From NCBI GenBank assembly GCA_947166565.1, contig CAMVEL010000007.1, positions 7,323-71,322 of the forward strand: 64,000 nt of DNA, written 5' to 3'. Within the stretch, counting starts at the first letter, position 1; each line of letters opens with the position of its first letter. The notes under the pieces were generated by a model. That model had not been told where the DNA came from. It saw nothing but the letters and a program-made list of their open reading frames with translations, and ran no database searches. Positions 2,120 to 53,622 of the stretch are shown one piece after another. A program made the position numbers and the translations under genes. Source of the DNA: an uncultured Erysipelotrichaceae bacterium (GTDB taxonomy: Bacteria > Bacillota_I > Bacilli_A > RFN20 > CAG-826).

Positions 2120-2575
2120 TTATTTGCGTCTGACTTTGAAAAACTCGTCTATTAATTCTTTGCTCTTATCTGCCAAGACCCCTCGATAAATCAAAGGCGA
2201 TGGATAAACTTTGGCGGAAAATGGGTCTATTCCATTGGAAAAAGCCCCGAATTTGGGATCGTCTGCCCCATAAACCAAGGTAGAGATTCGACTTTGAGCA
2301 ATTGCGCCTGCACACATTGGGCAAGGTTCTAATGTCACGATGAGTTCACACCCCTCGAGTTGCCACCTTCCTAATTTCTTAGCAGCTTCCTCTAAGGCAA
2401 GTATTTCGGCATGCCCGGATATTTTGTTTTTCCCTTCCCTCACATTATGGGCAGAGGCAACGATTTCTCCGTTTTGCAAAACGACGGCGCCAACCGGAAC
2501 CTCTCCTTTCAGAGAAGCTTTTTTGGCCTCTTCCAAGGCTAGTTTCATAGCTTCAATCGTTTCCATATATTCCAT
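2120..2575 (-). CDS. tadA: tRNA-specific adenosine deaminase
   Basis: Deaminase zinc motifs HAE (SGHAEILALE) and PCPMC (LEPCPMCAGAI). I place the start at ATG 2575 (MEYMETIEAMKLALEEAK). The 38 upstream codons of the track ORF overlap the SRP RNA. Confidence 0.9.
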   Translation of the reverse strand: MEYMETIEAMKLALEEAKKASLKGEVPVGAVVLQNGEIVASAHNVREGKNKISGHAEILALEEAAKKLGRWQLEGCELIVTLEPCPMCAGAIAQSRISTLVYGADDPKFGAFSNGIDPFSAKVYPSPLIYRGVLADKSKELIDEFFKVRRK

Positions 2576-2582
2576 TAAAACA

Positions 2583-2663
2583 AAACCACCGCACAGGGGA
2601 CAATGGTTTAAGGCTGCTTGGTTCCCCACCTGACCTGGTTCGTCACTATCTCCTCGCGATGGC
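2583..2663 (-). ncRNA. ffs: Small (4.5S-type) signal recognition particle RNA
   Basis: The minus strand reads GCCATCGCGAGGAGATAGTGACGAACCAGGTCAGGTGGGGAACCAAGCAGCCTTAAACCATTGTCCCCTGTGCGGTGGTTTT. It contains the universal domain IV core CCAGGUCAGGU..GGAA..AAGCAGCC with a GGAA tetraloop. The 5' CCATCGCG pairs with the 3' TGTGCGGTGG to close a single long hairpin. Ends are approximate, within a few nt. Confidence 0.8.
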
Positions 2664-2669
2664 GGAGAG

Positions 2670-2678
2670 ATTTTACCA
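2670..2678 (-). promoter_or_regulatory. Extended -10 promoter (TGgTAAAAT) for SRP RNA
   Basis: The minus strand reads tatGGTAAAATctctccGCC. TGnTAAAAT lies 6-7 nt upstream of the first base of the SRP hairpin. Confidence 0.55.
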
Positions 2679-2801
2679 TATAGAACCAATTATTGTGATA
2701 CCCATATTTATGACTATTAATAAGTTTTTATGAACGATTGGAAACAATCAAAAAACTTGCAATTTAAGGATTTTTATCTGATTTTTGCGGATTTTTCTAT
2801 T

Positions 2802-4067
2802 TTATTCTTCTTGTTCAAATAAACCGCGTTTAATGTTGGCTAGCATTAGCTTCAAACGGTTTTCCTGATTAACTTGAGTTGACGAAGCGTCGAAATCCAA
2901 AGGAATGATGTTGGCGTCTGGGGCCAAATTCTTGACGGGCCTAATCATGCCCTTTCCGACTATATGGTTCGGAAGGCAGCCGAAAGGCTGAACGACAACG
3001 ACGTTTTTGACGTCTCCCGTAACATAGGCAACCATCTCGGCCGGAATAAGCCAGCCTTCACCCATCTTGACTCCATCGGAAATAACTTTTTTACCTTGTT
3101 CAAGAACATATTCGAAGTCTTCATAAGGATCGAACCCGCTTCCAGCCATTGCCTTAGCTTGTTTTCTTGTAGCTCTAAGGAAAGCCTTATAGGCCAAACG
3201 GAAAGCGGCAACGGTGGCTTTTCCTTGCCCGTATTTCCGATAATCATTGATGTTGTTATAGACACAATAGAGACAAAATTCCCCGAAAGAGGGATAAACG
3301 ACTTCGCAATCTTGGGATACGAGGAAATCGGCCAAGTGATTATTGGCATATGGGCTATATTTAACATATATCTCGCCAACGATTCCGACCCTTGGTTTTC
3401 TATTCTCCCTATCCGGTTCTAATCCTTTGAAGTTATTGAGGATCATCTTGTAGTTTTTGCTCGTTTGATAAAAGGAATGGTGCCCTATTTCGGAAATGAG
3501 GGTATCCATTGAATCCCTCAAAGCTTTTTGGACCTTTTCCTTATCATGATATGGTTCGGCTTGGTCTTTTAGGTTCATTAACATGTCGCCATACATAATC
3601 GCATGGAGCATCATCCTTAATTCCGTAAGGGTTAAAGGAATACTAAATAGTTTTTCTAGACCAGAAAAATTGATGGATAAGACAGGAACTGTCGGAAATT
3701 CTTTTTCCAACGCCTTCCTAATTAGGGAAATGTAATTTGATGCCCTGCAGCCTCCGCCTGTTTGACTCATAATGACTGCGGTTTTATTCAAATCGTATTT
3801 CCCGGTTTTTAGTTCGGTGATAAATTGACCGGTTGTGATAATAGCCGGATAGCAAGCATCGTTTTGGACGGTTCTAAGCCCTTCGTCTTTTGCTTCTCTT
3901 CCCATAGGGGGAACAACAACTACATTGAGTCCGCTTCTATTGACGATATTTATGAAAAGCTCGAAAGTAATCGGAAGCATATCAGGAGCGATAATCGTGT
4001 AATGCTCCTTACGAAACTTCTTCCAAAGGGCTTTTCTTTCCTTTTTTTCCGCTTTCTTGGGGTTCAT
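2802..4067 (-). CDS. 2-hydroxyacyl-CoA dehydratase-like / DUF2229-type partner subunit of the upstream activase fusion (function unknown)
   Basis: 421 aa, overlapping the upstream gene by 4 nt. It shares the motifs DACYPA (VQNDACYPAIITTGQ) and FGC (QPFGCLPNH) with the C-terminal half of the 981-aa protein (SDTACYPAKIMHGH, SFGCGVDAI), which suggests an alpha/beta-like pair. Confidence 0.6.
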   Translation of the reverse strand: MNPKKAEKKERKALWKKFRKEHYTIIAPDMLPITFELFINIVNRSGLNVVVVPPMGREAKDEGLRTVQNDACYPAIITTGQFITELKTGKYDLNKTAVIMSQTGGGCRASNYISLIRKALEKEFPTVPVLSINFSGLEKLFSIPLTLTELRMMLHAIMYGDMLMNLKDQAEPYHDKEKVQKALRDSMDTLISEIGHHSFYQTSKNYKMILNNFKGLEPDRENRKPRVGIVGEIYVKYSPYANNHLADFLVSQDCEVVYPSFGEFCLYCVYNNINDYRKYGQGKATVAAFRLAYKAFLRATRKQAKAMAGSGFDPYEDFEYVLEQGKKVISDGVKMGEGWLIPAEMVAYVTGDVKNVVVVQPFGCLPNHIVGKGMIRPVKNLAPDANIIPLDFDASSTQVNQENRLKLMLANIKRGLFEQEE

Positions 4068-7009
4068 TTTTTATCCCTTTCTTTTGCGTCTTCGACCGCA
4101 GCAACCAAGGAACGAAGACGAATGCGGACCGCTCCAAGGTTATTGATCTCGTCAATTTTGATTTGGGTATAAAGCCTGCCGGATTCTTCCAAAATTCGCC
4201 TAACTTCATCGGATGTAATGGCATCGACGCCACAACCGAAGCTAACGAGGTGGACGATTTCCATGTCTTTCTGGGTCTTAACGAAGTTTGCGGCATCATA
4301 AAGCCTTGCGTGATATGTCCATTGATTCAAAACGTGGAGTTTTTCTCTTTCTGTGTTGTAATCAAAACAGTCCTCGGACAAAACCGCGACGCCCATTCCA
4401 TCTAGAAGCTTGTCGACGCCATGATTGATTTCCCTATCGACGTGATAAGGCCTTCCGACCAAGACGATCATTTCCTGATTGTTTTCTCTGGCGGTTTTGA
4501 TAATCTCCGCGCCTTTAGCCTTAACGTCGGACCTATATCTTATTTCTTCATCCAACCCGATTTTGAATGCACGGGCCACTTCTTTTTTCGAAATCCCGTG
4601 TTTCTTTAAGGCGGAATAAAGGGTTTCGATTGTCTTTTTGTCGTTATTTAAATCAACGAACGGGTCAAGGAAGTTGTCGTCGCTCAGCCTAGTGTCGTTT
4701 CGTTTCAAAAGCTCACCATAATAAGCAACGACGGGGCAATTGTAATAATTGTCGCCTCGCTTTTCGTTAATGTTATAGGATTCCGAAGGATAGAAGATGA
4801 AATCTACGCCTTGTTCCAATAGATAATCAATATGCCCGTGCATTATCTTTGCGGGATAACAAGCCGTATCGCTAGGAATAGTCTTTTGGCCTCTTCTATA
4901 CAGACTTCTTGTGGAGATTGGACTTAATTCTACGGCGAATCCGAGTTCCTTGAAGAAGGCATCCCAGAGTGGAAGTTGTTCATACATGGCCAAGGTGAAA
5001 GGCAGACCGACTTTTCCCTTTGTGGCTTCTTTATCCGGATAACGTTGCAACAAACGCTTTCGCTTATAGTGATAAATATCGAGCGAGTGGTTCGCTTTGG
5101 GCTTTCCTTCACCTTTTTCACATTTGTTTCCAGAAATATAGACCCCGCCTTGAGGGAACCTAAGAATTGTCAGATTGCAATGTGATGTGCATTGCTGGCA
5201 ATTCGTATGGGCGGTCGTGTAAGTGAAGTTGTTGAGGTCTTCCAAAGATATAAGCCCACCTTTACCGCCTTTTTCTTTAGCGTATAACGCGGCTCCAAAG
5301 GCTCCCATCAATCCGGCAATGGATGGACGGATGACTTCATGCCCGATTTCCATTTCAAAACATCTAAGGACGGCGTTATTTAAGAACGTTCCGCCCTGGC
5401 AAACTATCCTTTCGCCAAGCTCGGTAAAGTTTCTAACCCTAATAACCTTGTATAAGGCGTTTTTAATGACAGAACGGGAAAGGCCCGCGGAAATATCTTC
5501 GATAGTAGCTCCGTCTCTTTGGGCTTCCTTAACGGAAGAATTCATAAAAACCGTACACCTACTACCTAATTCCACCGGATTTTTCGCATAAAGACCGAGC
5601 TTTGAGAATTCCTCTACGCCATATCCTAGCGCAGAAGCGAAGGAAGAAAGGAACGATCCGCAGCCAGAAGAGCAGGCCTCATTTAACATAATGGAATCAA
5701 TCGCCCCATTCCTAATTCGGAAACACTTTATGTCTTGCCCTCCGATATCGATGATGAAATCAACGTTAGGTTCAAAGAATTTCGCGGCTTTGAAGTGGGC
5801 GACCGTTTCGACTAACCCGTAATCGACTTTTAAGGAATTCTTGATGAGTTCCTCGCCGTATCCCGTGACCGCCGATCCTTCAATTTTTAGGTCTTTTGTG
5901 CCCAAACGGTATATTGTTTTGATCTGAGCAACGATCTTTTCTATAGGGAGACCATTGTTGGGTTCATAATGCGAATAAAGGATGCGATTATCTTCTGATA
6001 GAAGAACGATTTTGGTAGTTGTAGAGCCTTCATCAATACCTAAATACGCTTTGCCTGAATATGTTTTGAGGTCTGCGGTCTTAACATCAAAATCCTTGTG
6101 GCGTTTCAAGAAGGCCTCAAAGTCCTTCTCATCGGAGAAAAGGCGTTCTCCCGTTATGATTTGACCAGCGGTTTCCGCGTTTAGAAGCTTATTTTTCACA
6201 TCCTTTAGTTCCATGACTTCGTCACGGCGTTTTGCGTATAACGCGGCCCCTTTAGCCATGAAGGTGGAGGCGTCTTCTGGAAAGAAAGCGTGCTCTTGGC
6301 TTAGTTTTAATCTATCCATGAAGGCTCTTCTAAGGCCTTTGAGAAAGAACAACGGCCCTCCAAGGAACAAGACGTCGCCTTTGATTTCTCTTCCTTGGGC
6401 AAGCCCTGCGATCGTTTGGTCGGCAACCGCATAGAAAATTGATAGGGCTATATCTTCTTTTTTGGCGCCTTGATTAAGGATTGCTTGAATATCGGACTTG
6501 GCGAAAACACCACATCTAGAGGCGATGGGATATGCTTTTTCGGCCTTTAAGGCCATTTCGTCCATCTCGGGAAGAGAGATATTAAGAAGCGTGGCCATCT
6601 GGTCGATAAATGCCCCGGTGCCTCCCGCGCATTGCCCGTTCATTCTTTCTTCGACTCCGCCGGTAATAAAGATGATCTTGGCGTCTTCTCCACCTAATTC
6701 GATCGCGCAATCGGCGGTTGGGAAGAGTTTTTTGATGGCCAAGAAAGCGGATTCGACTTCCTGAACAAAGGGGAGGTCAGCTCTTTCCGATAATCCAAGA
6801 CCAGCAGAACCCGTTAAGGAAACCTTGACCTGAATATTGCCTAATTTCTGTTCGATTTCGGTTAGTTCCTGAAGCGCGGTCTCCTTAACTTTTGAGCCAT
6901 GCCTTACGTAATTTGCGTATAAACAGTTGTTATCAACGTCTAAAACCACGGCTTTCACCGTGGTCGATCCGACGTCTATTCCTAATGTATATACGGGATT
7001 ATTTTGCAT
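4064..7009 (-). CDS. Tandem BcrAD/BadFG-type (HgdC-like) ATPase 'activase' domains fused to a dehydratase-like domain
   Basis: There are two ASKHA phosphate-1 motifs (LGIDVGSTTVKAVVL, LGIDEGSTTTKIVLL). Each is followed by the paired cluster-ligand cysteines typical of HgdC-like activators (NGQCAGGTGAF + SRCGVFAKSD; NEACSSGCGSF + SRCTVFMNSS). A Cys-rich linker follows (CQQCTSHCN...GNKCEKG), then a C-terminal DUF2229-like part. Confidence 0.75.
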   Translation of the reverse strand: MQNNPVYTLGIDVGSTTVKAVVLDVDNNCLYANYVRHGSKVKETALQELTEIEQKLGNIQVKVSLTGSAGLGLSERADLPFVQEVESAFLAIKKLFPTADCAIELGGEDAKIIFITGGVEERMNGQCAGGTGAFIDQMATLLNISLPEMDEMALKAEKAYPIASRCGVFAKSDIQAILNQGAKKEDIALSIFYAVADQTIAGLAQGREIKGDVLFLGGPLFFLKGLRRAFMDRLKLSQEHAFFPEDASTFMAKGAALYAKRRDEVMELKDVKNKLLNAETAGQIITGERLFSDEKDFEAFLKRHKDFDVKTADLKTYSGKAYLGIDEGSTTTKIVLLSEDNRILYSHYEPNNGLPIEKIVAQIKTIYRLGTKDLKIEGSAVTGYGEELIKNSLKVDYGLVETVAHFKAAKFFEPNVDFIIDIGGQDIKCFRIRNGAIDSIMLNEACSSGCGSFLSSFASALGYGVEEFSKLGLYAKNPVELGSRCTVFMNSSVKEAQRDGATIEDISAGLSRSVIKNALYKVIRVRNFTELGERIVCQGGTFLNNAVLRCFEMEIGHEVIRPSIAGLMGAFGAALYAKEKGGKGGLISLEDLNNFTYTTAHTNCQQCTSHCNLTILRFPQGGVYISGNKCEKGEGKPKANHSLDIYHYKRKRLLQRYPDKEATKGKVGLPFTLAMYEQLPLWDAFFKELGFAVELSPISTRSLYRRGQKTIPSDTACYPAKIMHGHIDYLLEQGVDFIFYPSESYNINEKRGDNYYNCPVVAYYGELLKRNDTRLSDDNFLDPFVDLNNDKKTIETLYSALKKHGISKKEVARAFKIGLDEEIRYRSDVKAKGAEIIKTARENNQEMIVLVGRPYHVDREINHGVDKLLDGMGVAVLSEDCFDYNTEREKLHVLNQWTYHARLYDAANFVKTQKDMEIVHLVSFGCGVDAITSDEVRRILEESGRLYTQIKIDEINNLGAVRIRLRSLVAAVEDAKERDKK

Positions 7010-7010
7010 G

Positions 7011-8291
7011 TTATTTCTTTATAGGCTTGATAACTTCCAACCCACCCATGTATTTTCTTAAGACCTCAGGAATCAAGATAGATCCGTCTTCCTGTTGGCA
7101 TTGCTCAACAAGCGCGGGGAAGATACGCGAAGTCGCTAAGCCAGAACCGTTTAAGGTGTGGCAGAAATGCATTTTGCCATCCTCTCCACGATATCTGATC
7201 ATGCCTCTCCTCGCTTGATAGTCGCGAGCGTTGGAAACGGAAGAGACTTCTTTATAAATGCCCATGGAAGGAATCCAAACCTCAATATCATAGGTCCTAG
7301 CCATCGAATGGGAGCAATCCCCCGCGGCCAATTTATCCAATTGATATGTAAGTCCAAGGCCTTCAACAAGTTTTTGGGCTTTCTTGACCATCTCTTCGAA
7401 AGCGGCGTCACTACCTTCTTCGGTGGTGTATTGGACCATTTCAACTTTGTTGAATTGATATCCGCGAATCATGCCGCGTTCTTCGGTACGGTAACTGCCG
7501 GCTTCCTTTCTGTAGCAAGGAGTATAGGCGAAATATTTTCTTGGGAGGTCTGACTCGGAAAGGATTTCGTCGCGGTGGAGATTAACGAGCGCGGTTTCCG
7601 CGGTCGGAAGGATGAATTTACGGGGTTCGGTTCCTTCTAGCCAGAAAACGTCTTCCTCGAATTTTGGGAATTGTCCTGCCGTATAGCCCGAATTGTAATT
7701 GAGGATATGGGGAGGCAAAATCATCTCATAGCCATCGGCAAGGTGGGTTTCGATGAAATAATTGAGTAATGCCCATTCTAATCTGGCACCCAAATTGGTG
7801 TAGATCCAGGTGCCGTTCCCAGAGATCTTTGCGGCCCTCTTATAATCGATTAAGCCACAGGATTCACATAGATCAACGTGGTTCTTGGGAGTGAATTTCA
7901 TGGAATTCGGATCACCGAATTTGTAGATTGGGTGGTTGTTTTCCTTACCACCGGCGACAAGGTCATCATCTGGGATATTCGGCAAGACCTCAAGGAGGGC
8001 CTTAAGCTCTTCCTCAATCTTCTTAAGTCTTTCTTCGCCTTCCTTGTTTTCAGCCGCCAAAGCTTTCACGCGAGCGAAAATCGCTTGCACGTCCCCTCCG
8101 TTTTTCTTGACTTCGGGTACGGATTTGGATAATTGATTCTGCTCAGCCTTGTTGGCTTCGGTCTTTTTCAAGACGACAAGTCTTTCTTCAGCAAGGGCTT
8201 GGATGGGCTTTGGATCAAAATCCCATAGTTTTTTGGCAAGGGCTTCCTTTACACCCTCGGGGTTTTCAAGGATTCTTTTCAAATCAATCAT
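7011..8291 (-). CDS. serS: Seryl-tRNA synthetase
   Basis: 426 aa with an N-terminal coiled-coil arm and a class II core (FAYTPCYRKEAGSYRTEERGMIRGYQFNKVE, TLNGSGLATSR). Overlaps the upstream glycosyltransferase by 8 nt. Confidence 0.95.
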   Translation of the reverse strand: MIDLKRILENPEGVKEALAKKLWDFDPKPIQALAEERLVVLKKTEANKAEQNQLSKSVPEVKKNGGDVQAIFARVKALAAENKEGEERLKKIEEELKALLEVLPNIPDDDLVAGGKENNHPIYKFGDPNSMKFTPKNHVDLCESCGLIDYKRAAKISGNGTWIYTNLGARLEWALLNYFIETHLADGYEMILPPHILNYNSGYTAGQFPKFEEDVFWLEGTEPRKFILPTAETALVNLHRDEILSESDLPRKYFAYTPCYRKEAGSYRTEERGMIRGYQFNKVEMVQYTTEEGSDAAFEEMVKKAQKLVEGLGLTYQLDKLAAGDCSHSMARTYDIEVWIPSMGIYKEVSSVSNARDYQARRGMIRYRGEDGKMHFCHTLNGSGLATSRIFPALVEQCQQEDGSILIPEVLRKYMGGLEVIKPIKK

Positions 8292-9300
8292 GGCTTTTGG
8301 CCTCCTTTTTTTCGCTTAATAGCAAATTGTATACAGATTGGAGAAACGCTCCGCTGCGTTCGATTGAATTCTTCTTCGCAATCGCGAATGAAGCGTGGGT
8401 CGTTTCCTTTCCTTCGCCTTCGTAGATTTCCTCTAGAAATTGGAGAAGGGCGTCTTCCTTTTTGGCGATTTTTCCAGACACCCCATTGATTAATAAGGGG
8501 TTAAGGTCTTGATTACCGAGGGCGATGACCGGGGTTTTGGCCGAGAAGGCCTCCATCATTCCCGTGGCATCCGGAAGTTTGGAAAGCATCAAGTAGGCGG
8601 AAGCGTGTTTCATTGCGCTGCGATAGACATCATCGCTTAAGACCCTCGATATCTTAAGGTTCTTAGGGGCCTTATTCTTATAATGCCTCACGAGGAATTC
8701 CGCGTAACGGGGTGCGTATCCTAGGAAATAGAAACGCATCTTCGGCATCTTCTTAGCTAAGGAAAGAAGGGTTCTTAATTTCTTGGTTTCATAGAAATTC
8801 CCGGTGATTAAGACATATTTTCTTTCCTTGGAAACTCCGAAATAACGAAGGAAGAGGACGGATTCTATGTCGCTAAGGACGAATCTATCAGGGTTCACGG
8901 AAGGGTGCGAAACGAATATTTTGGATTTGATTCCGTTCTTTTCGCAGAATTTCTTAAGGGGGATCGAAGGGACGAGGACGGCATCCGCCTCATTGAGCAT
9001 CTTCTTGGCTTTTGGTCTAAGAAAGAATTGCCCCTTCGGATCCGCGATAAGCATTCTGGCATCCAAATCCCTTTCGCAGTAGAAGGCGGAGACCACGGTC
9101 TTGACGCCTTTGGCTTTCATTCTCCTCATAAGACCCAAGTCTTTATCGGAGACGAAGTGCGCGATATCGGGTTTGGAATACCTGTTATCGACCCATTCGA
9201 TGCCCATGGATTCGCATTCGCCTTTGAGGGTTTTCCTTAAGCGGTCACCCTCAAAAGCGTCGCGGTTCGAATTTGGTTGGTAATAGACGAGAACTCGCAT
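8284..9300 (-). CDS. GT4-family glycosyltransferase (possibly a glycolipid synthase)
   Basis: 338 aa with the C-terminal GT-B retaining-type motif (PDATGMMEAFSAKTPVIALG). Wedged between gyrA and serS with a 14-nt gap and an 8-nt overlap. Confidence 0.65.
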   Translation of the reverse strand: MRVLVYYQPNSNRDAFEGDRLRKTLKGECESMGIEWVDNRYSKPDIAHFVSDKDLGLMRRMKAKGVKTVVSAFYCERDLDARMLIADPKGQFFLRPKAKKMLNEADAVLVPSIPLKKFCEKNGIKSKIFVSHPSVNPDRFVLSDIESVLFLRYFGVSKERKYVLITGNFYETKKLRTLLSLAKKMPKMRFYFLGYAPRYAEFLVRHYKNKAPKNLKISRVLSDDVYRSAMKHASAYLMLSKLPDATGMMEAFSAKTPVIALGNQDLNPLLINGVSGKIAKKEDALLQFLEEIYEGEGKETTHASFAIAKKNSIERSGAFLQSVYNLLLSEKKEAKSHD

Positions 9301-16809: not shown

Positions 16810-18177
16810 TTATTTGGATAATTTGTTTTTTATCTCGTTTATGGCTGTCCCCATATCCGGGTCGTTTTTCAACTCTCTTTCCACTTTCGAGATACCGCTC
16901 AAGACGGTGGAATGATCCTTACCGCCAAATGCTTGACCTATCTTAATCAAGGGTGTTCCGAGCATTTCCCTATCGAGATACATAGCGATATGACGGGCCA
17001 TGGCCACGCGGCTTGTGCGTATCTTGCCGGTGATTTGGGATGGGGTTAATGAATAGTAATTAGCCACTGCAGCAATAATCTTGTTTTCCGTCAATTCATC
17101 CTGGCTTTCGTGAGCTTCTATCAAAGACCTTATAGCTTCCGAAACGACGCTCATGGTGATGTGCTTTGTTGGCTTGATGTTGATCGTGTAGAAGACCAAT
17201 CTCGTTAATGCACCCTCGAGATCCCTTACGTTGGAACAGAACTTCCTAGCGAGGAAGGAAATGACTTCTTCATCGAAGTCCTTTACGTCTAACCCATGCA
17301 TGGGTATCTTCGATTTCAATATGTTCTCACTAGTTTCAAGATCCGGTTTATCAATGCTTAGGACTAAGCCCTGCGAGAACCTCGATTTGAGTCTTTCGTC
17401 AATTCCGTCTAGATTATTTGGATGCTGATCGGAGGTAATGACAACCTGCTTGTTCGCGTTGATCAACGTTTGGAAAGCATCGAAGAACATTTCCATCGTT
17501 TTGGCTTTCTGCTTCAATAGTTGAATATCGTCAATCAAAAACAAATCAACGTCTTTTCTAAAGAAATCCGTGAAGGATTTAACGCCCTTATAACCGGTCG
17601 CGTATTTCACGTATTCGTTGATGAAATCCGAAGTGGAAAGGAAGAGGACCCTGGCTCCCGGGTTTTTCTCTCTAACAGCATTGCCGATCGCTTGCAAAAG
17701 GTGGGTTTTGCCTAAACCTGGGCCAGAGTATAGAAGCAAAGGGTTATAAAGCTGACCCGGCGTGGAAGCGATCATCAAAGACGCTTGATAAGCCTCTCTA
17801 TTCGATGGTCCGACAATAAAATTGTCGAAAGTGAACTGTTTATTTAAATGCGAAGAAGTGAAATATTGAGGAATCGAATCGTCTTTTGCTTCTTGGGTTT
17901 GACTTGAAGAGGAAGAAGCCACGAATTCAGCGTGGAAATCGGTTCCGGTGACATTATGGAGAACCTCGTCGATGGTTTCCGAGAATTTAGATTTCAAAAC
18001 GGCTGCCGCAACGGGAGTTGAAACGTTTACCGTAATAACATTATTATCTACGCGTGTGGCGTCCGTGCCTGCGAAAAAGCTATCGAAAATCCTTTGTTCG
18101 ATTTTGCCTTTTAATTCCTTCAGGGTCAGTTCCCAGATTGCCTTAAGTTCAGAAATGGTTTCATTCATAATATTCAC
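16810..18177 (-). CDS. dnaA: Chromosomal replication initiator protein DnaA
   Basis: 455 aa with the AAA+ Walker A GPGLGKTHLLQAIG, Walker B LFLIDDIQ, and a C-terminal DnaA-box binding domain (MARHIAMYL...GGKDHSTVL). Confidence 0.97.
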   Translation of the reverse strand: MNIMNETISELKAIWELTLKELKGKIEQRIFDSFFAGTDATRVDNNVITVNVSTPVAAAVLKSKFSETIDEVLHNVTGTDFHAEFVASSSSSQTQEAKDDSIPQYFTSSHLNKQFTFDNFIVGPSNREAYQASLMIASTPGQLYNPLLLYSGPGLGKTHLLQAIGNAVREKNPGARVLFLSTSDFINEYVKYATGYKGVKSFTDFFRKDVDLFLIDDIQLLKQKAKTMEMFFDAFQTLINANKQVVITSDQHPNNLDGIDERLKSRFSQGLVLSIDKPDLETSENILKSKIPMHGLDVKDFDEEVISFLARKFCSNVRDLEGALTRLVFYTINIKPTKHITMSVVSEAIRSLIEAHESQDELTENKIIAAVANYYSLTPSQITGKIRTSRVAMARHIAMYLDREMLGTPLIKIGQAFGGKDHSTVLSGISKVERELKNDPDMGTAINEIKNKLSK

Positions 18178-18591
18178 CTCCGGTATTTTGACATTTCCAC
18201 AATAAAAAGCAACTAAAATTTTAACATCATTGATTTTTCCACAATTTAACTTATATTCGGCAAAAAATGGCCTATTTATGGAGTTTTCAACTTTTCCACA
18301 TTGTGGATTAAATGTGGTAAAAATTACCCATATTCAAACCGTTGTGGAAAACTTATTTTTGCTAGGTGTTGCCAACATAGAAAACAGCTTCTTTTACATG
18401 CTGCAAAACGAAGAAATTAGACATTTCCCACAATTATCAACAAAATGCAATCAACATGGCTGTGGGAACGCTGTTTCGAAGAGGTTTTTTGGATGGAAAA
18501 CGAGGATAAAAACAATGGGGATATTTTTTGTTAATCTTTCGGATTTCCCATCTCCAAATTCTTTCGATGCCGAAATTGGTGTTTTTTGGTG
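18178..18591. other. oriC, dnaA-upstream DnaA-box cluster
   Basis: One-mismatch DnaA boxes: TTTTCCACA at 18235-18243 and 18292-18300, TGTGGATTA at 18302-18310 and TGTGGAAAA at 18343-18351. Weaker boxes lie at 18193-18201 and 18434-18442. The background is AT-rich, between the divergent dnaA and rpmH genes. Confidence 0.75.
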
Positions 18592-18620
18592 TTGTTTGCC
18601 CGCGGTCGCGCCCGTATAAT
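18592..18620 (+). promoter_or_regulatory. Sigma-70-type promoter of rpmH-rnpA-yidC-jag
   Basis: TTGTTT (18592-18597), 17-nt spacer, TATAAT (18615-18620), about 30 nt upstream of the rpmH SD (aaaggagag). Confidence 0.6.
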
Positions 18621-18802: not shown

Positions 18803-19150
18803 TTGCCTATGAAGCGAGAACTCAGGGTTAGAAAACACCAAGAATTCGATCGCATCATAAAAGGCGGGAAGAAGATCAAATCCCCCCATTTCAGCTTTTA
18901 TTACGTCGAGGCAGACCCTGCCCAAAAACACTCAAGAATCGGATTGGCCGTATCTAAAGCCAACGGGAAAGCCATCAAAAGAACCCGTATAAAAAGACAA
19001 GTACGCGCCATGCTCACTAAGCGAAATGATTATGGGGATCCGATCGATCTCATCATCGTGATTCGCCCTTCCTACTCGGAAGAGGCGTTTCACGGAAACG
19101 AGGCCGAATTGAACGAATGCCTCAACAAAATCAAGGAATTACTACATTGA
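18803..19150 (+). CDS. rnpA: Ribonuclease P protein component
   Basis: 115 aa, basic (RIGLAVSKANGKAIKRTRIKRQVRAM), directly after rpmH. Confidence 0.9.
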   Translation: MPMKRELRVRKHQEFDRIIKGGKKIKSPHFSFYYVEADPAQKHSRIGLAVSKANGKAIKRTRIKRQVRAMLTKRNDYGDPIDLIIVIRPSYSEEAFHGNEAELNECLNKIKELLH

Positions 19151-44899: not shown

Positions 44900-45385
44900 G
44901 TGGATAATAGTTCGGTGCCGAACAATATGAATGTCATCGATCGGGAAAAATCAATTAGAAGGAATCTGAATTCCTTGGTAAAAGTCTCTTCCAAAAGCGT
45001 GGGGGCTTACCTTTCAAGTAATCTTCCAACCGATTTAACCGAATCCGAATACATCCTCCTTGGATACATTTCCCTAAACGAAGGCAAAAGTACTTGCGAT
45101 ATAGCTTCGTCGATGGGCCTTGCCAAGGGAACTGTATCAGAAACAATCAAATCTTTGATTGAAAAAGGATTCGTTTTTACAAAACGGTCTGAAAACGATA
45201 AGCGCAGATTTTTTCTTTATCCTACCGAAAAAGCCAAGAAAAGGCATGAGGATGTTAAAACCTGCTTTAAAGAGATAGACAATTCGTTTGAAAAGGGGAT
45301 TACCACGGAAGAAAAAGAGATTTTTATCCGCGTATTAGAGAAAATAGAAAACAACATCGTTGAAGGAGGGAAAAATGGCCAGTGA
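44900..45385 (+). CDS. MarR-family transcriptional regulator
   Basis: 161 aa with a winged HTH (STCDIASSMGLAKGTVSETIKSLIEKGFVFTKRSENDKRRFFLYPT). Start is GTG 44900 or ATG 44927. Confidence 0.8.
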   Translation: MDNSSVPNNMNVIDREKSIRRNLNSLVKVSSKSVGAYLSSNLPTDLTESEYILLGYISLNEGKSTCDIASSMGLAKGTVSETIKSLIEKGFVFTKRSENDKRRFFLYPTEKAKKRHEDVKTCFKEIDNSFEKGITTEEKEIFIRVLEKIENNIVEGGKNGQ

Positions 45386-47228
45386 AGAACAACGCATCCT
45401 CGAAGAGGTCGATAAGAAAAATCGGGCCGAAATCGAGAGATTAAAGGGCGTACATGTTATCAAAACCCTTAAGCAATACGCGCGTGGATATTGGAAACAC
45501 GCGGTATTGGCTTGGGTGCTTTGCGTGGTGGAGGTCGGATGCGAAATCGCAATACCCTTCCTTGCGCAATTCATTATCAATTACATAAACATGATGGAGG
45601 GGACCGTAACATTTACGGACCCAATGTCGACGAATTTGGCTTTAACTAGCTCCATTATGGCTACTTTGGCGGTCATTAGCGCTACTTGCGGAATAGTTGC
45701 GGGGTTTGCCGCGGCCAAAGCCTCGGCGGGATTTGGCAAAAACCTTAGACAAGCAATGTTCTATAAGATACAAACCTTCTCCTTTGCTAACATTGATAAA
45801 TTCTCGACCGCCTCTTTGGTAACTCGCCTTACAACGGACGTCACCAACGTCCAATTTGCCGTTCAGATGATTTTGAGACTGGTCGTGCGCGCGCCTCTAA
45901 TGATCATATTTGCCTTCTCCATGGCCGTCTCCATTTCTTGGCAGCTTAGTTTGGTATTCGTGGCTGTTGTTCCTCTTTTGGCCTTTGTCTTGTTCTTTAT
46001 TGCCATTAAGGTTCACCCAACTTTTGTAAAAGTGTTTAACGCATACGACGATTTAAATGCTTCAGTTGAAGAAAACCTCAACGGAATACGTGTTGTTAAA
46101 AGCTTTGGCAGAGAGTCTTTTGAAACCGAAAAATTCGGGCATGTCTCCTATTTTATTTATAAGAACTTCGTCCATGCCGAGAAGATTCTCGCTTTTAATG
46201 ACCCTTCGATGCATTTAGCGGTTTACGCGTGCATGATCGTTATAGCTTTCTTCGGGGCAAGAATGATTGTTTCGACAGGAAACGCCCAAACCGGCTTTAC
46301 CGAGGGTAACTTAACTTCTTTGATTTCGTATATCATGCAAATCATGATGTCATTGATGATGATTTCCATGGGATTCGTCATGATTATCATTTCCAGAAAC
46401 TCCGCCGAACGTATTTCCGAAGTATTGATTGAAGAACCATCTTTGAAAAACAAAGAGAATCCAATTATGGAAGTCCCAAATGGTCAAGTCGACTTTGAGA
46501 GTGTCGGTTTTAGATATAACGCAAAATCGGAAAAAGAAGTCTTAGAAAACATCAATGTTCATATTCCTTCTGGGTCGGTTGTTGGCATAATCGGTGGTAC
46601 GGGGTCCTCAAAATCTTCTTTTGTTAATCTAATTGCTAGACTTTACGACGTTAGCAGAGGAGCAGTTAAGGTTGGAGGGAACGATGTTAGGGATTACGAC
46701 CTACACGCATTGCGTGATTCGGTAGCAGTTGTCTTGCAGAAAAACGTTTTGTTTAGCGGGACCGTGCGCTCAAATTTACTTTGGGGTAACAAAGATGCAA
46801 CAGACGAAGAAATAAAACATGCCGCTAAACTTGCCTGCGCAGATGAATTCATTGAAAGGATGCCAAAAGGCTACGATTCGCCTATAGAACAGGGTGGCAC
46901 TAATGTGTCTGGGGGCCAAAGGCAAAGGCTTTGTATAGCTAGAGCCCTTCTAAAGAGCCCCAAAATATTGATTTTGGATGATTCTACGTCCGCGGTTGAT
47001 ACCCATACGGATTCGTTGATCCGCGCCTCTTTCAAGACAGAGATTCCAAACGTTACCAAGTTTATTGTTTCTCAACGCGTCCTTTCCATTAAGGATGCAG
47101 ACTTAATTTTGGTCTTTGATAAAGGCCAAATCGTGGGCATGGGTAAGAACGACGATCTCATCAAAACCTGCCCAATCTATAAAGAACTGCATGAGACTCA
47201 ACTGGGAGGAGGTGATTTCGATGAATAA
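45375..47228 (+). CDS. Heterodimeric ABC exporter subunit with a degenerate ATP site
   Basis: TMD + NBD. Walker A is GGTGSSKSS and the signature is VSGGQRQRL. Walker B is followed by Asp instead of the catalytic Glu (ILILDDSTSAVD). ATG 45375 follows GGAGGG. Confidence 0.85.
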   Translation: MASEEQRILEEVDKKNRAEIERLKGVHVIKTLKQYARGYWKHAVLAWVLCVVEVGCEIAIPFLAQFIINYINMMEGTVTFTDPMSTNLALTSSIMATLAVISATCGIVAGFAAAKASAGFGKNLRQAMFYKIQTFSFANIDKFSTASLVTRLTTDVTNVQFAVQMILRLVVRAPLMIIFAFSMAVSISWQLSLVFVAVVPLLAFVLFFIAIKVHPTFVKVFNAYDDLNASVEENLNGIRVVKSFGRESFETEKFGHVSYFIYKNFVHAEKILAFNDPSMHLAVYACMIVIAFFGARMIVSTGNAQTGFTEGNLTSLISYIMQIMMSLMMISMGFVMIIISRNSAERISEVLIEEPSLKNKENPIMEVPNGQVDFESVGFRYNAKSEKEVLENINVHIPSGSVVGIIGGTGSSKSSFVNLIARLYDVSRGAVKVGGNDVRDYDLHALRDSVAVVLQKNVLFSGTVRSNLLWGNKDATDEEIKHAAKLACADEFIERMPKGYDSPIEQGGTNVSGGQRQRLCIARALLKSPKILILDDSTSAVDTHTDSLIRASFKTEIPNVTKFIVSQRVLSIKDADLILVFDKGQIVGMGKNDDLIKTCPIYKELHETQLGGGDFDE

Positions 47229-49149
47229 GAGACCAAAATTGGATTTTAAGACTACCATGTCATTGTTTTTCCGCCTTTTAGGTCGTATGTTTAGGGGCCA
47301 CCCCGTCATGTTTTTGCTTTGCATCCCGACAATTATCGTCGGGGTTGCGGTTCAATCAATCGGCGCTTTGTTCATTGGTCAAATTTTGATTAACCAGTTC
47401 ATTGAACCATCAATTGCCGCTGGCAGATCGCCAGATCAAATTGTTGGCGTAGTTAACTTGTTTGGGAACGCCATCGAAGTAAGCCTTCTAACTGCCGTTT
47501 TGGCAATGGCAAGCTTATATCTTTTGGGTGTGGTGTGCGTCTTCCTTTATCGCGTTATGGCTTGCATTGTTGGACAATCTGCCCAAATGGGTATCCGCAA
47601 CGAGCTGTTTGAGAAAATGGAAAGCCTCCCATTAAAATATTTTGATACGCGCATACACGGGGACATAATGTCCGTTTATACAAACGACGTTGATACGTTG
47701 CGCGAATTAACCTCAAGGGTCCTTCCAACCGTTGTGCAAATGCTATTTGCCATGCTTATCGCGTTAATTACGATGATTTCGACGGGTTCATGGCCTTTGC
47801 TCTTGGTGGTCTTAGGTTTCTTTGTCGTTATTCTTACGACGATTACAATCGTAACAAAACAGTCTTCAAAATATTTCATTGCCCAACAAAGAATTCTTGG
47901 TCAGACAAACGGTTATATTGAGGAAATGATATCCGGGCAGAAGGTTGTTAAGGTCTTTAATCATGAAGAAGAGAACAAGGAAGGGTTTGACAAGCTCAAT
48001 GAATCGTTGTGCAAAAACGTCACTAAATCCTCTCAGTTCTCGTCTATTCTTGGTCCAATCACCAACAACCTAAGTAATTTGATGTATGTCGTGCTTGCTT
48101 CCGTTGGAGCCGCCGGAATCTCTGCAGGAATTGATGGTTTATCCATCGGGACCATCGTTTCCTTCCTTTCTTTAGGGAGAAGCTTCATTATGCCAATTGC
48201 CCAACTTGCGAGCCAGATCAATATGATTATAGTCGCGATGGCGGGCGCACAACGTATTTTTGCCATGATCGATGAAACGCCCGAAACAGACCAAGGGTAT
48301 GTTTCTCTCGTTAATGCGAAAAAAGGTCCTGATGGTCAGCCAGTTGAAGTCGAAGAAAAAACCGGACTATGGGCGTGGAAACATCCGCACACAGATGGTT
48401 CTGGAACGACTTATACATGGCTTGCCGGGAAAATAACTATGGATCACGTAGACTTTGGATATAACAAAGAGAAAATAGTTCTTCATGACGTCTCTTTATA
48501 TGCCAAACCAGGACAAAAAGTTGCTTTTGTGGGTCCGACAGGGGCGGGCAAAACCACGATAACGAACTTATTAAACCGTTTTTACGATATAGAAGACGGA
48601 AAGATTCGTTTCGATGACATCAATATAAACAAGATCAAAAAGAAAGATCTCCGCAGGGCCATGGGGATGGTTTTGCAAGATACGAATCTTTTTACCGCGA
48701 CGGTTAGGGAAAACATTCGTTACGGAAACCCAGATGCTACTGATGAAGAAGTCGAAAACGCAGCAAAATTAGCAAACGCAGACGGATTTATCAGAATGCT
48801 CCCAGAAGGATATGATACAGTCTTAAGGTCCGCTGGAGCAGACTTGTCACAAGGTCAAAGACAATTACTATCCATTGCCCGTGCGGCTTGTGCAAATCCT
48901 CCGGTGTTGATTCTCGATGAAGCTACTTCTTCAATCGACTCAAGAACAGAGAAGATTGTCGCAAAGGGAATGGACGCCATTATGGAAGGCAGAACTGTCT
49001 TTGTCATAGCCCACCGCTTGTCCACCATTCAAAACAGCAACGTCATCATCGTTCTCGAGAACGGTCATGTCAGCGAGAAAGGCAACCATGAGCAACTGCT
49101 GGCAGCCAAAGGGAAGTATTACCAGCTTTACACGGGTGGAAAGCAGTAA
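47221..49149 (+). CDS. Heterodimeric ABC exporter subunit with a consensus ATP site
   Basis: Walker A is GPTGAGKTT, the signature is LSQGQRQLL, and Walker B with the catalytic Glu is LILDEATSSID. ATG 47221 overlaps the upstream stop by 8 nt. Confidence 0.85.
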   Translation: MNKRPKLDFKTTMSLFFRLLGRMFRGHPVMFLLCIPTIIVGVAVQSIGALFIGQILINQFIEPSIAAGRSPDQIVGVVNLFGNAIEVSLLTAVLAMASLYLLGVVCVFLYRVMACIVGQSAQMGIRNELFEKMESLPLKYFDTRIHGDIMSVYTNDVDTLRELTSRVLPTVVQMLFAMLIALITMISTGSWPLLLVVLGFFVVILTTITIVTKQSSKYFIAQQRILGQTNGYIEEMISGQKVVKVFNHEEENKEGFDKLNESLCKNVTKSSQFSSILGPITNNLSNLMYVVLASVGAAGISAGIDGLSIGTIVSFLSLGRSFIMPIAQLASQINMIIVAMAGAQRIFAMIDETPETDQGYVSLVNAKKGPDGQPVEVEEKTGLWAWKHPHTDGSGTTYTWLAGKITMDHVDFGYNKEKIVLHDVSLYAKPGQKVAFVGPTGAGKTTITNLLNRFYDIEDGKIRFDDININKIKKKDLRRAMGMVLQDTNLFTATVRENIRYGNPDATDEEVENAAKLANADGFIRMLPEGYDTVLRSAGADLSQGQRQLLSIARAACANPPVLILDEATSSIDSRTEKIVAKGMDAIMEGRTVFVIAHRLSTIQNSNVIIVLENGHVSEKGNHEQLLAAKGKYYQLYTGGKQ

Positions 49150-53494: not shown

Positions 53495-53622
53495 TATAAT
53501 TGGCTTGGGAATGATGTCTCCCATCTAGAAATAGAGAACCGCAATGAAGTGCTGATGACGTCTATGACTTGTTTTGTCATAGAAATCAGCGCTTTTGTTT
53601 CTATGGCAGATGGGAGGTATCG
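53495..53622 (+). promoter_or_regulatory. -10 box plus a rod-like ~110-nt leader that sequesters the antiporter SD
   Basis: The -10 box is TATAAT at 53495-53500. Stem P1, 53514-53526 (atgtCTCCCATCT), pairs with 53608-53620 (AGATGGGAGgtat), which contains the SD GGGAGG. The inner stems are 53527-53531/53598-53602, 53547-53556/53585-53594 (aagtGCTGAT/ATCAGCgctt) and 53561-53568/53576-53583 (TCTATGAC/GTCATAGA). Confidence 0.55.

Follow-up and report, generated by a model that had tools for sequence, protein, structure and literature searches.

A probable two-subunit plasmalogen synthase, PlsA/PlsR, encoded behind serS near the replication origin of an uncultured Erysipelotrichaceae bacterium

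What do two overlapping genes encode that lie directly behind serS, in a run of housekeeping genes close to the probable replication origin of an uncultured Erysipelotrichaceae bacterium? The genes lie on the minus strand of a 64,000-nt stretch of contig CAMVEL010000007.1, the whole of which we refer to as the window (Table 1), and the original prediction described their products as an uncharacterized activase/dehydratase-like pair with an unknown substrate. That description no longer holds, given that both proteins have full-length counterparts in Clostridium perfringens, namely PlsA and PlsR, and we consider it quite probable that the window proteins constitute the two-subunit anaerobic plasmalogen synthase known by these names. 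The two genes are accordingly called plsA and plsR below.

Similarity to the plasmalogen synthase of C. perfringens

The C. perfringens reference was obtained by scanning a metagenome collection with the gene-specific parts of the published plsA-plsR cloning primers (PMC12838417, Table S6). Both primers matched exactly on one metagenome contig, 4199 bp apart, and the region that they delimit (L004:6694-10892) encodes a 975-aa open reading frame (ORF) with a TTG start and a 420-aa ORF, whose products are identical, by exact look-up, to C. perfringens database entries (e.g., BAB80900.1). PMC12838417 describes C. perfringens plsA-plsR as a two-gene operon, CPE1194/1195, which Jackson et al. cloned and expressed as a 4199-bp fragment, and reports that plsA-plsR alone is sufficient for plasmalogen synthesis in Escherichia coli. 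Plasmalogen formation by the pair was demonstrated by genetics as well as by heterologous expression (Jackson 2021, via PMC12838417, PMC9702350 and PMC8788747); the same three papers place PlsA/PlsR in the benzoyl-CoA reductase/2-hydroxyacyl-CoA dehydratase (BCR/HAD) family and report a single fused gene in Enterococcus, Lactococcus and Bifidobacterium.

When the window proteins were compared with this reference, PlsA proved 55% identical over 972 of its 981 aa (1091 bits) and PlsR 44% identical over 407 of its 421 aa (E 2e-109), in alignments that run end to end and are collinear, with no rearrangement in either protein. The Pfam pattern is also that of the C. perfringens pair, in hits as well as in positions: two BcrAD_BadFG stretches and a DUF2229 match at residues 666-881 in PlsA (E 1.6e-70), and, at the N-terminal end of PlsR, a borderline DUF2229 match (29.3 bits, cut-off 29.4) over residues 35-86. 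The original prediction had proposed searches with these two families and with HGD-D (PF06050); this last family gave no match in either window protein, even at E<=10, nor in the C. perfringens pair. Among NCBIfam models, the generic “acyl-CoA dehydratase activase” model CoA_E_activ matched two stretches of PlsA with 273 bits, while PlsR matched none of the models searched, a collection that holds no PlsR model. Furthermore, all 13 of the invariant PlsA cysteines and all three of the invariant PlsR cysteines are present in the C. perfringens proteins. It is because of the end-to-end alignment, the equal Pfam pattern and the shared invariant cysteines that we assign the pair to PlsA/PlsR. The similarity to the validated enzyme is orthology-grade and, as the PlsA/PlsR system itself has been known and understood since 2021, the window pair is a further counterpart of it.

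The arrangement of the genes is close to that of C. perfringens (Q8XL48/Q8XL47), where two adjacent, co-oriented genes of together ~4.2 kb likewise encode the series Act1-Act2-Cys linker-Red1 plus Red2 (module names from PMC12838417, Fig. 8). There, however, a short spacer separates the genes, whereas in the window they overlap by 4 nt (...AAAAAATGAACC), the ATG of plsR lying over the TGA of plsA. In the window TGA is read as stop, and the genetic code is therefore table 11. A further difference from C. perfringens is the position of the window pair in a run of housekeeping genes close to the origin in an uncultured Bacilli lineage, where a single base separates the TAA of serS from the plsA start codon. 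These ORFs and junctions, together with all the sequence motifs quoted below, are as the original prediction had given them.

Table 1. Coordinates of the gene pair, its modules and its nearest neighbors in the window
Feature	Coordinates	Strand	Description
plsA	4064..7009	minus	981-aa ORF, order Act1-Act2-Cys linker-Red1; 2x PF01869 + PF09989
Act1, first BcrAD/BadFG ATPase module	6224..6994	minus	residues ~6-262; C127, C166 are candidate bridging [4Fe-4S] ligands
Act2, second ATPase module	5267..6052	minus	residues ~320-581; conserved C446, C485
Four-Cys linker, C604-x2-C607-x3-C611...C630	5114..5200	minus	candidate extra metal or Fe-S site
Red1, DUF2229 catalytic-type domain	4085..5032	minus	residues ~660-975; conserved C717, C758, C926; PF09989 E 1.6e-70
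plsR	2802..4067	minus	421-aa ORF, Red2 subunit; conserved C72, C107, C364
serS	7011..8291	minus	TIGR00414, 391 bits vs. cut-off 302; directly upstream of plsA
Glycosyltransferase gene (GT4)	8284..9300	minus	Pfam Glycos_transf_1 + Glyco_transf_4; overlaps serS by 8 nt
Signal recognition particle (SRP) RNA gene	2580..2665	minus	Rfam RF00169, 51.8 bits vs. gathering score 40; downstream boundary of the plsA-plsR unit

We then surveyed the pair in 80 genomes of other lineages, taken from among the matches listed, in which PlsA is at most 61% identical to that of the window; Enterococcus faecalis and Thermotoga maritima lie outside this set. Directly behind plsA, or as a fusion with it, a PlsR-like gene occurs in 74 of the 80 loci, including six in which both occupy one ORF (L082, L084, L090, L091, L095 and L096). 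The rest comprise three incomplete loci, two that lack a PlsR-like gene within 8 kb and one that has it upstream. The neighborhood analysis suggested with the original prediction therefore found the pair itself kept together, but not its serS/gyrase setting (see below). An exhaustive PlsR search brought up many matching proteins of 1400-1470 aa, aligned at their own residues ~1000-1410; in one such natural fusion, of 1409 aa (P0245), the first 987 residues share 49% identity with PlsA and the remaining ones 42% with PlsR. Through this fused homologue we also compared the window pair with the single-chain PlsA of E. faecalis (EF1327/Q835P9), Lactococcus cremoris and Bifidobacterium longum (~1415-1640 aa), in which one polypeptide carries the four modules in the same order; in the window pair, the split comes after Red1. 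The translational overlap, the natural fusions and the co-occurrence indicate that PlsA and PlsR work together. The family has also undergone repeated fusion and fission, and the representative library contains forms of ~830-850 aa (e.g., P0249, 847 aa) that match PlsR twice, seemingly without ATPase modules.

Cysteines, catalytic halves and a proposed reaction

The architecture that had been predicted, with a double activator of HgdC/BcrAD type joined to a catalytic-type domain and accompanied by a paralogous second catalytic-type subunit, is borne out by Pfam, HMMER, the fold search and hhalign. The two activator modules of PlsA carry the motifs NGQCAGGTG (residues 124-132) and SRCGVFA (164-170), and NEACSSGCG (443-451) and SRCTVFM (483-489), followed by the linker motif CQQCTSHC (604-611) plus C630. 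The catalytic halves share a further signature, with DTACYPA (714-720) and FGC (924-926) in PlsA and DACYPA (70-75) and FGC (362-364) in PlsR. Cysteines invariant across 43 PlsA-like homologues include C127, C166, C446, C485, C604, C607, C611, C630, C717, C758 and C926, and those invariant across 40 PlsR-like homologues are C72, C107 and C364. In HMMER alignments, the positions of C127 and C166 correspond to the equivalent cysteines of MbdP, and those of C446 and C485, counted along the printed alignment, to Cys127 and Cys166 of HgdC (1hux), the reported cluster ligands of that activator (Locher et al. 2001). The cysteines of Fe-S type in the window proteins are candidate cluster ligands.

Red1 and Red2 appear to be distant paralogues. 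A profile alignment with hhalign joins residues 10-258 of PlsR to residues 650-879 of PlsA (E 5e-5, probability 67%) and pairs C72 with C717 and C107 with C758, which supports the presence of two paralogous catalytic halves. Although sequence and profile searches of the Protein Data Bank with PlsR gave no match, a fold search with its predicted structure did, and the model places PlsR in the HAD/BCR superfamily: the structure table lists HadC (12.7), BzdN (12.6), MbdN (11.7), the double-cubane cluster protein DCCP (11.3), HadB (9.9), BzdO (9.2) and MbdO (8.3). In the PlsA model (predicted confidence, pLDDT, 82), the ATPase modules match HadI, MbdP/MbdQ, HgdC and the DCCP reductase, DCCP-R.

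Membership of the activator modules and of the PlsR fold in the HAD/BCR superfamily and the public names of close homologues (“2-hydroxyacyl-CoA dehydratase” and “acyl-CoA dehydratase activase”) are what speaks for an acyl-CoA-directed enzyme, i.e., a dehydratase or an aryl-CoA reductase with a built-in activator that serves fermentation. We consider such an enzyme extremely unlikely. The reading taken from the databases is discounted because the validated C. perfringens enzyme bears the same generic names, which are thus uninformative. PlsR is moreover just ~11% identical to HadC and BzdN, resembles the solved structures in fold but not at sequence level, and has no PF06050 match. An activator with the two cluster cysteines of the 2-hydroxyacyl-CoA dehydratases is present, but catalytic subunits at the level of PF06050 are absent. 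Nor do CoA-transferase or acyl-CoA genes adjoin the pair, in the window or in related loci: none of the fermentation genes for CoA-transferases or 2-hydroxyacid dehydrogenases was found in the window or among the upstream neighbors of 72 related loci.

The characterized systems of the superfamily differ from the window pair in other respects as well. HadBC/HadI and HgdAB/HgdC act on a CoA thioester rather than a membrane lipid, their activator is a separate, catalytically acting homodimer, their catalytic subunits share the ~11% identity given above, and their net reaction is redox-neutral, whereas two electrons are required to convert an ester into a vinyl ether. Class I benzoyl-CoA reductases (BcrABCD, BzdNOPQ and MbdONPQ) consist of four separate subunits, act on an aromatic CoA substrate and are similar in their catalytic parts at the fold level only. 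DCCP/DCCP-R (7yyl), like the window pair, combines an ATP-dependent reductase module with a HAD-like catalytic subunit, both of which match the window models, but its [Fe8S9] double cubane is bound by more cysteines, its physiological substrate is unknown, and it shows no fusion.

Returning to a plasmalogen synthase, the cluster content, electron path, lipid substrate and vinyl-ether product can be proposed from the family and its literature, with class I benzoyl-CoA reductase and the HAD activators as analogues. Act1 and Act2, two actin-fold ATPases, would form an intramolecular pseudo-dimer modeled on the BcrA/BcrD or HgdC dimer, with one bridging [4Fe-4S] cluster held by C127, C166, C446 and C485. 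A ferredoxin or flavodoxin would reduce this cluster, and ATP hydrolysis would push the electron to a very low potential. From there it would pass, possibly via the four-Cys linker (C604/C607/C611/C630), to a heterodimer-like catalytic unit made of Red1, the C-terminal domain of PlsA, and Red2, i.e., PlsR, each with three conserved cysteines at HAD-like positions. The sn-1 acyl ester carbonyl of an assembled diacyl glycerolipid would then take up two electrons plus protons, and dehydration would yield the 1-alk-1'-enyl (vinyl) ether. This is in agreement with the published scheme in which two reductions precede protonation and dehydration (PMC8788747), also summarized in bioRxiv 10.64898/2026.06.23.733905. 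The general mechanism of the original prediction, ATP-driven injection of low-potential electrons, would by the same analogy be right.

The same machinery acting on the same substrate could also yield a saturated alkyl ether at sn-1 (and perhaps sn-2), as in the Ger-type glycerol ester reductases, which act on the sn-1 ester of membrane lipids and only anaerobically (PMC13159169). Ger of T. maritima and D. alkenivorans (Tmari_0479/AGL49404; SHJ90043) is a PlsA homologue of the same superfamily with a BBD core, i.e., two activation domains plus one DUF2229, as in the window (PMC13159169). Validated Ger enzymes, which we compared by description only, differ from validated PlsA in their saturated alkyl ethers and are single polypeptides in which further small matches to PF06050 (HGD-D) and PF09989 come after the core, in the order BBDHDDH or BBDHDHDH (PMC13159169). 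The window, in contrast, has two genes, split as in C. perfringens, with no PF06050 match and with the Pfam pattern and the above-mentioned identities to the validated plasmalogen synthase, although the authors who study Ger themselves regard architecture as an uncertain criterion (PMC13274423). Based on these differences, we regard a Ger-type product as improbable.

Several observations weigh against a plasmalogen synthase and should be set beside the similarity to C. perfringens. PlsA and Ger cannot at present be separated, or a protein assigned to one of them, by primary structure alone (PMC13274423), and for the window pair, too, the sequence does not decide between a vinyl ether and a Ger-type alkyl ether. 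The function of the pair in this organism is a prediction from its genes. The fold of Red1 is not among the structure matches listed for the PlsA model, and the four-Cys linker is modeled with low confidence (pLDDT 54-75), its role as a metal site being only a candidate one.

Genomic setting near the origin

The original prediction had placed the pair at the end of an uninterrupted minus-strand run of gyrB, gyrA, a GT4 glycosyltransferase gene and serS beside the origin. NCBIfam equivalogs together with DnaA boxes confirm this, extending the run to dnaA, dnaN, yaaA, recF, gyrB, gyrA, the GT4 gene, serS and then the pair, with rnpA, yidC, jag and mnmE on the plus-strand arm. Five near-consensus DnaA boxes lie within ~210 bp (18235-18442), between dnaA (16810-18177, minus strand) and rnpA (18803-19150, plus strand), and this cluster is probably oriC, ~11 kb from the pair. 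The AT skew switches sign at the cluster. A 129-aa ORF overlapping it (18230-18619, plus strand) matches no family and probably does not represent a gene.

Given the 1-nt gap between serS and plsA, the pair is likely co-transcribed with serS by read-through, and this tight coupling suggests constitutive plsA-plsR expression in the lineage. Scans for a terminator after plsR or an internal promoter returned consensus sites no more numerous than in shuffled controls. The GT4 product scores 94 bits against the NCBIfam model IagA/BgsA and 68 bits against that for a processive diacylglycerol glucosyltransferase, both far under the cut-offs; with its resemblance to synthases of diacylglycerol glycolipids or lipoteichoic acid anchors, the gene may be a second membrane-lipid gene in the run. 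Its counterpart in the relative L012 is just 47% identical, compared with 77-83% for the flanking genes.

Downstream of the pair come the SRP RNA gene and then tadA, so that plsA-plsR occupies the slot between serS and SRP RNA/tadA. The order of serS, SRP RNA and tadA is presumably the ancestral origin-proximal one of Bacillota, as in Bacillus subtilis. The SRP RNA gene falls within the called N-terminal extension of the tadA-like ORF (2120-2689, minus strand), and the real tadA probably begins with the ATG at 2575, for a product of 151 aa (149 aa in L012). A promoter-like site with an extended -10 element lies just upstream of the SRP RNA, at 2699-2670.

Such a setting raises the possibility that the pair has a still-unknown core function tied to the replication and translation genes, such as a housekeeping redox reaction that has nothing to do with lipids. 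In support of this, the coupling to serS is tight, with its 1-nt gap, and the relative whose PlsA is 77% identical fully keeps the order dnaA-dnaN-yaaA-recF-gyrB-gyrA-GT-serS-plsA-plsR-tadA. However, in relatives at 71%, 68% and 62% identity the pair is intact while its neighbors are different; serS, the GT4 gene, gyrA and tadA are all absent within 8 kb of the pair in 80 of the 80 more distant genomes; and the upstream neighbors of 72 loci have no family in common. Full-length similarity to PlsA/PlsR is, moreover, a sufficient explanation, making a separate core function very improbable. Because the placement is kept in one close relative but lost at <=71% identity and in the 80 genomes, we consider it a lineage-specific accident rather than a property of the system. 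The pair thus constitutes a self-contained module, which agrees with its being sufficient in E. coli. Of the originally predicted core rather than niche catabolic role, the rejection of niche catabolism stands, but the argument from position is weakened, since, of the loci examined, only that of the 77% relative shares this context.

A recurrent link to aminoacyl-tRNA synthetases was considered and rejected, no such family being among the recurrent upstream matches in the 72 loci. Two relatives at 71% identity do have one nearby: ProRS lies directly upstream and co-oriented in one (L098, 4435-5877), and a class-Ic Glx-RS two genes off in the other (L097, 3491-5131). In four of the 72 loci, plsA is directly preceded by a gene that joins AMP-binding and NAD_binding_4 (“male sterility”) domains (judging by ORF size, probably L078:4834-7815, L081:4834-7815, L087:5030-7978 and a fourth); it looks like a fusion of a fatty-acyl-AMP ligase and a reductase, possibly a lipid-tail enzyme. 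Horizontal transfer of plsA-plsR was also considered, but there is no clear signal in GC content, which is 0.42-0.44 in the pair, 0.50 in the gyrase genes and ~0.45 in the window.

Annotation, membrane lipids and other features of the window

A wide distribution of PlsA/PlsR, among anaerobic Bacillota, Actinobacteria and other groups, is known already, and the sole peculiarity here is the lineage-specific position of the pair behind serS, close to oriC. Generic names persist in public databases for the window proteins, for their relatives and even for the validated C. perfringens pair, which NCBI and UniRef list as “acyl-CoA dehydratase activase-related protein” and “2-hydroxyacyl-CoA dehydratase”; such names mislead metabolic reconstructions of gut and rumen metagenome-assembled genomes toward amino-acid fermentation. 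Recognition of the pair predicts that the lineage is an anaerobe with plasmalogens or other ether lipids in its membrane. More speculatively, plsA-plsR may be wired into a constitutive gyrB-gyrA-GT4-serS operon, such that ether lipids would be an obligatory, constitutive core component of the membrane, as opposed to the regulated accessory trait of other Bacillota. We hold this to be doubtful; if true, these lipids might be plasmenyl glycolipids or Ger-type alkyl ethers.

Elsewhere in the window, a fluoride riboswitch (53498-53571, plus strand; RF01734 at 37.5 bits, gathering score 34) immediately precedes a gene for a 414-aa protein of the Na+/H+ exchanger family (PF00999; 53569-54813, plus strand), rather than a crcB or CLC-F gene. 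Two adjoining ABC exporter genes, each encoding a fused transmembrane and nucleotide-binding domain, are called at 45360-47228 and 47116-49149 on the plus strand. These calls overlap by 113 nt, and the true start of the second gene is probably further downstream.

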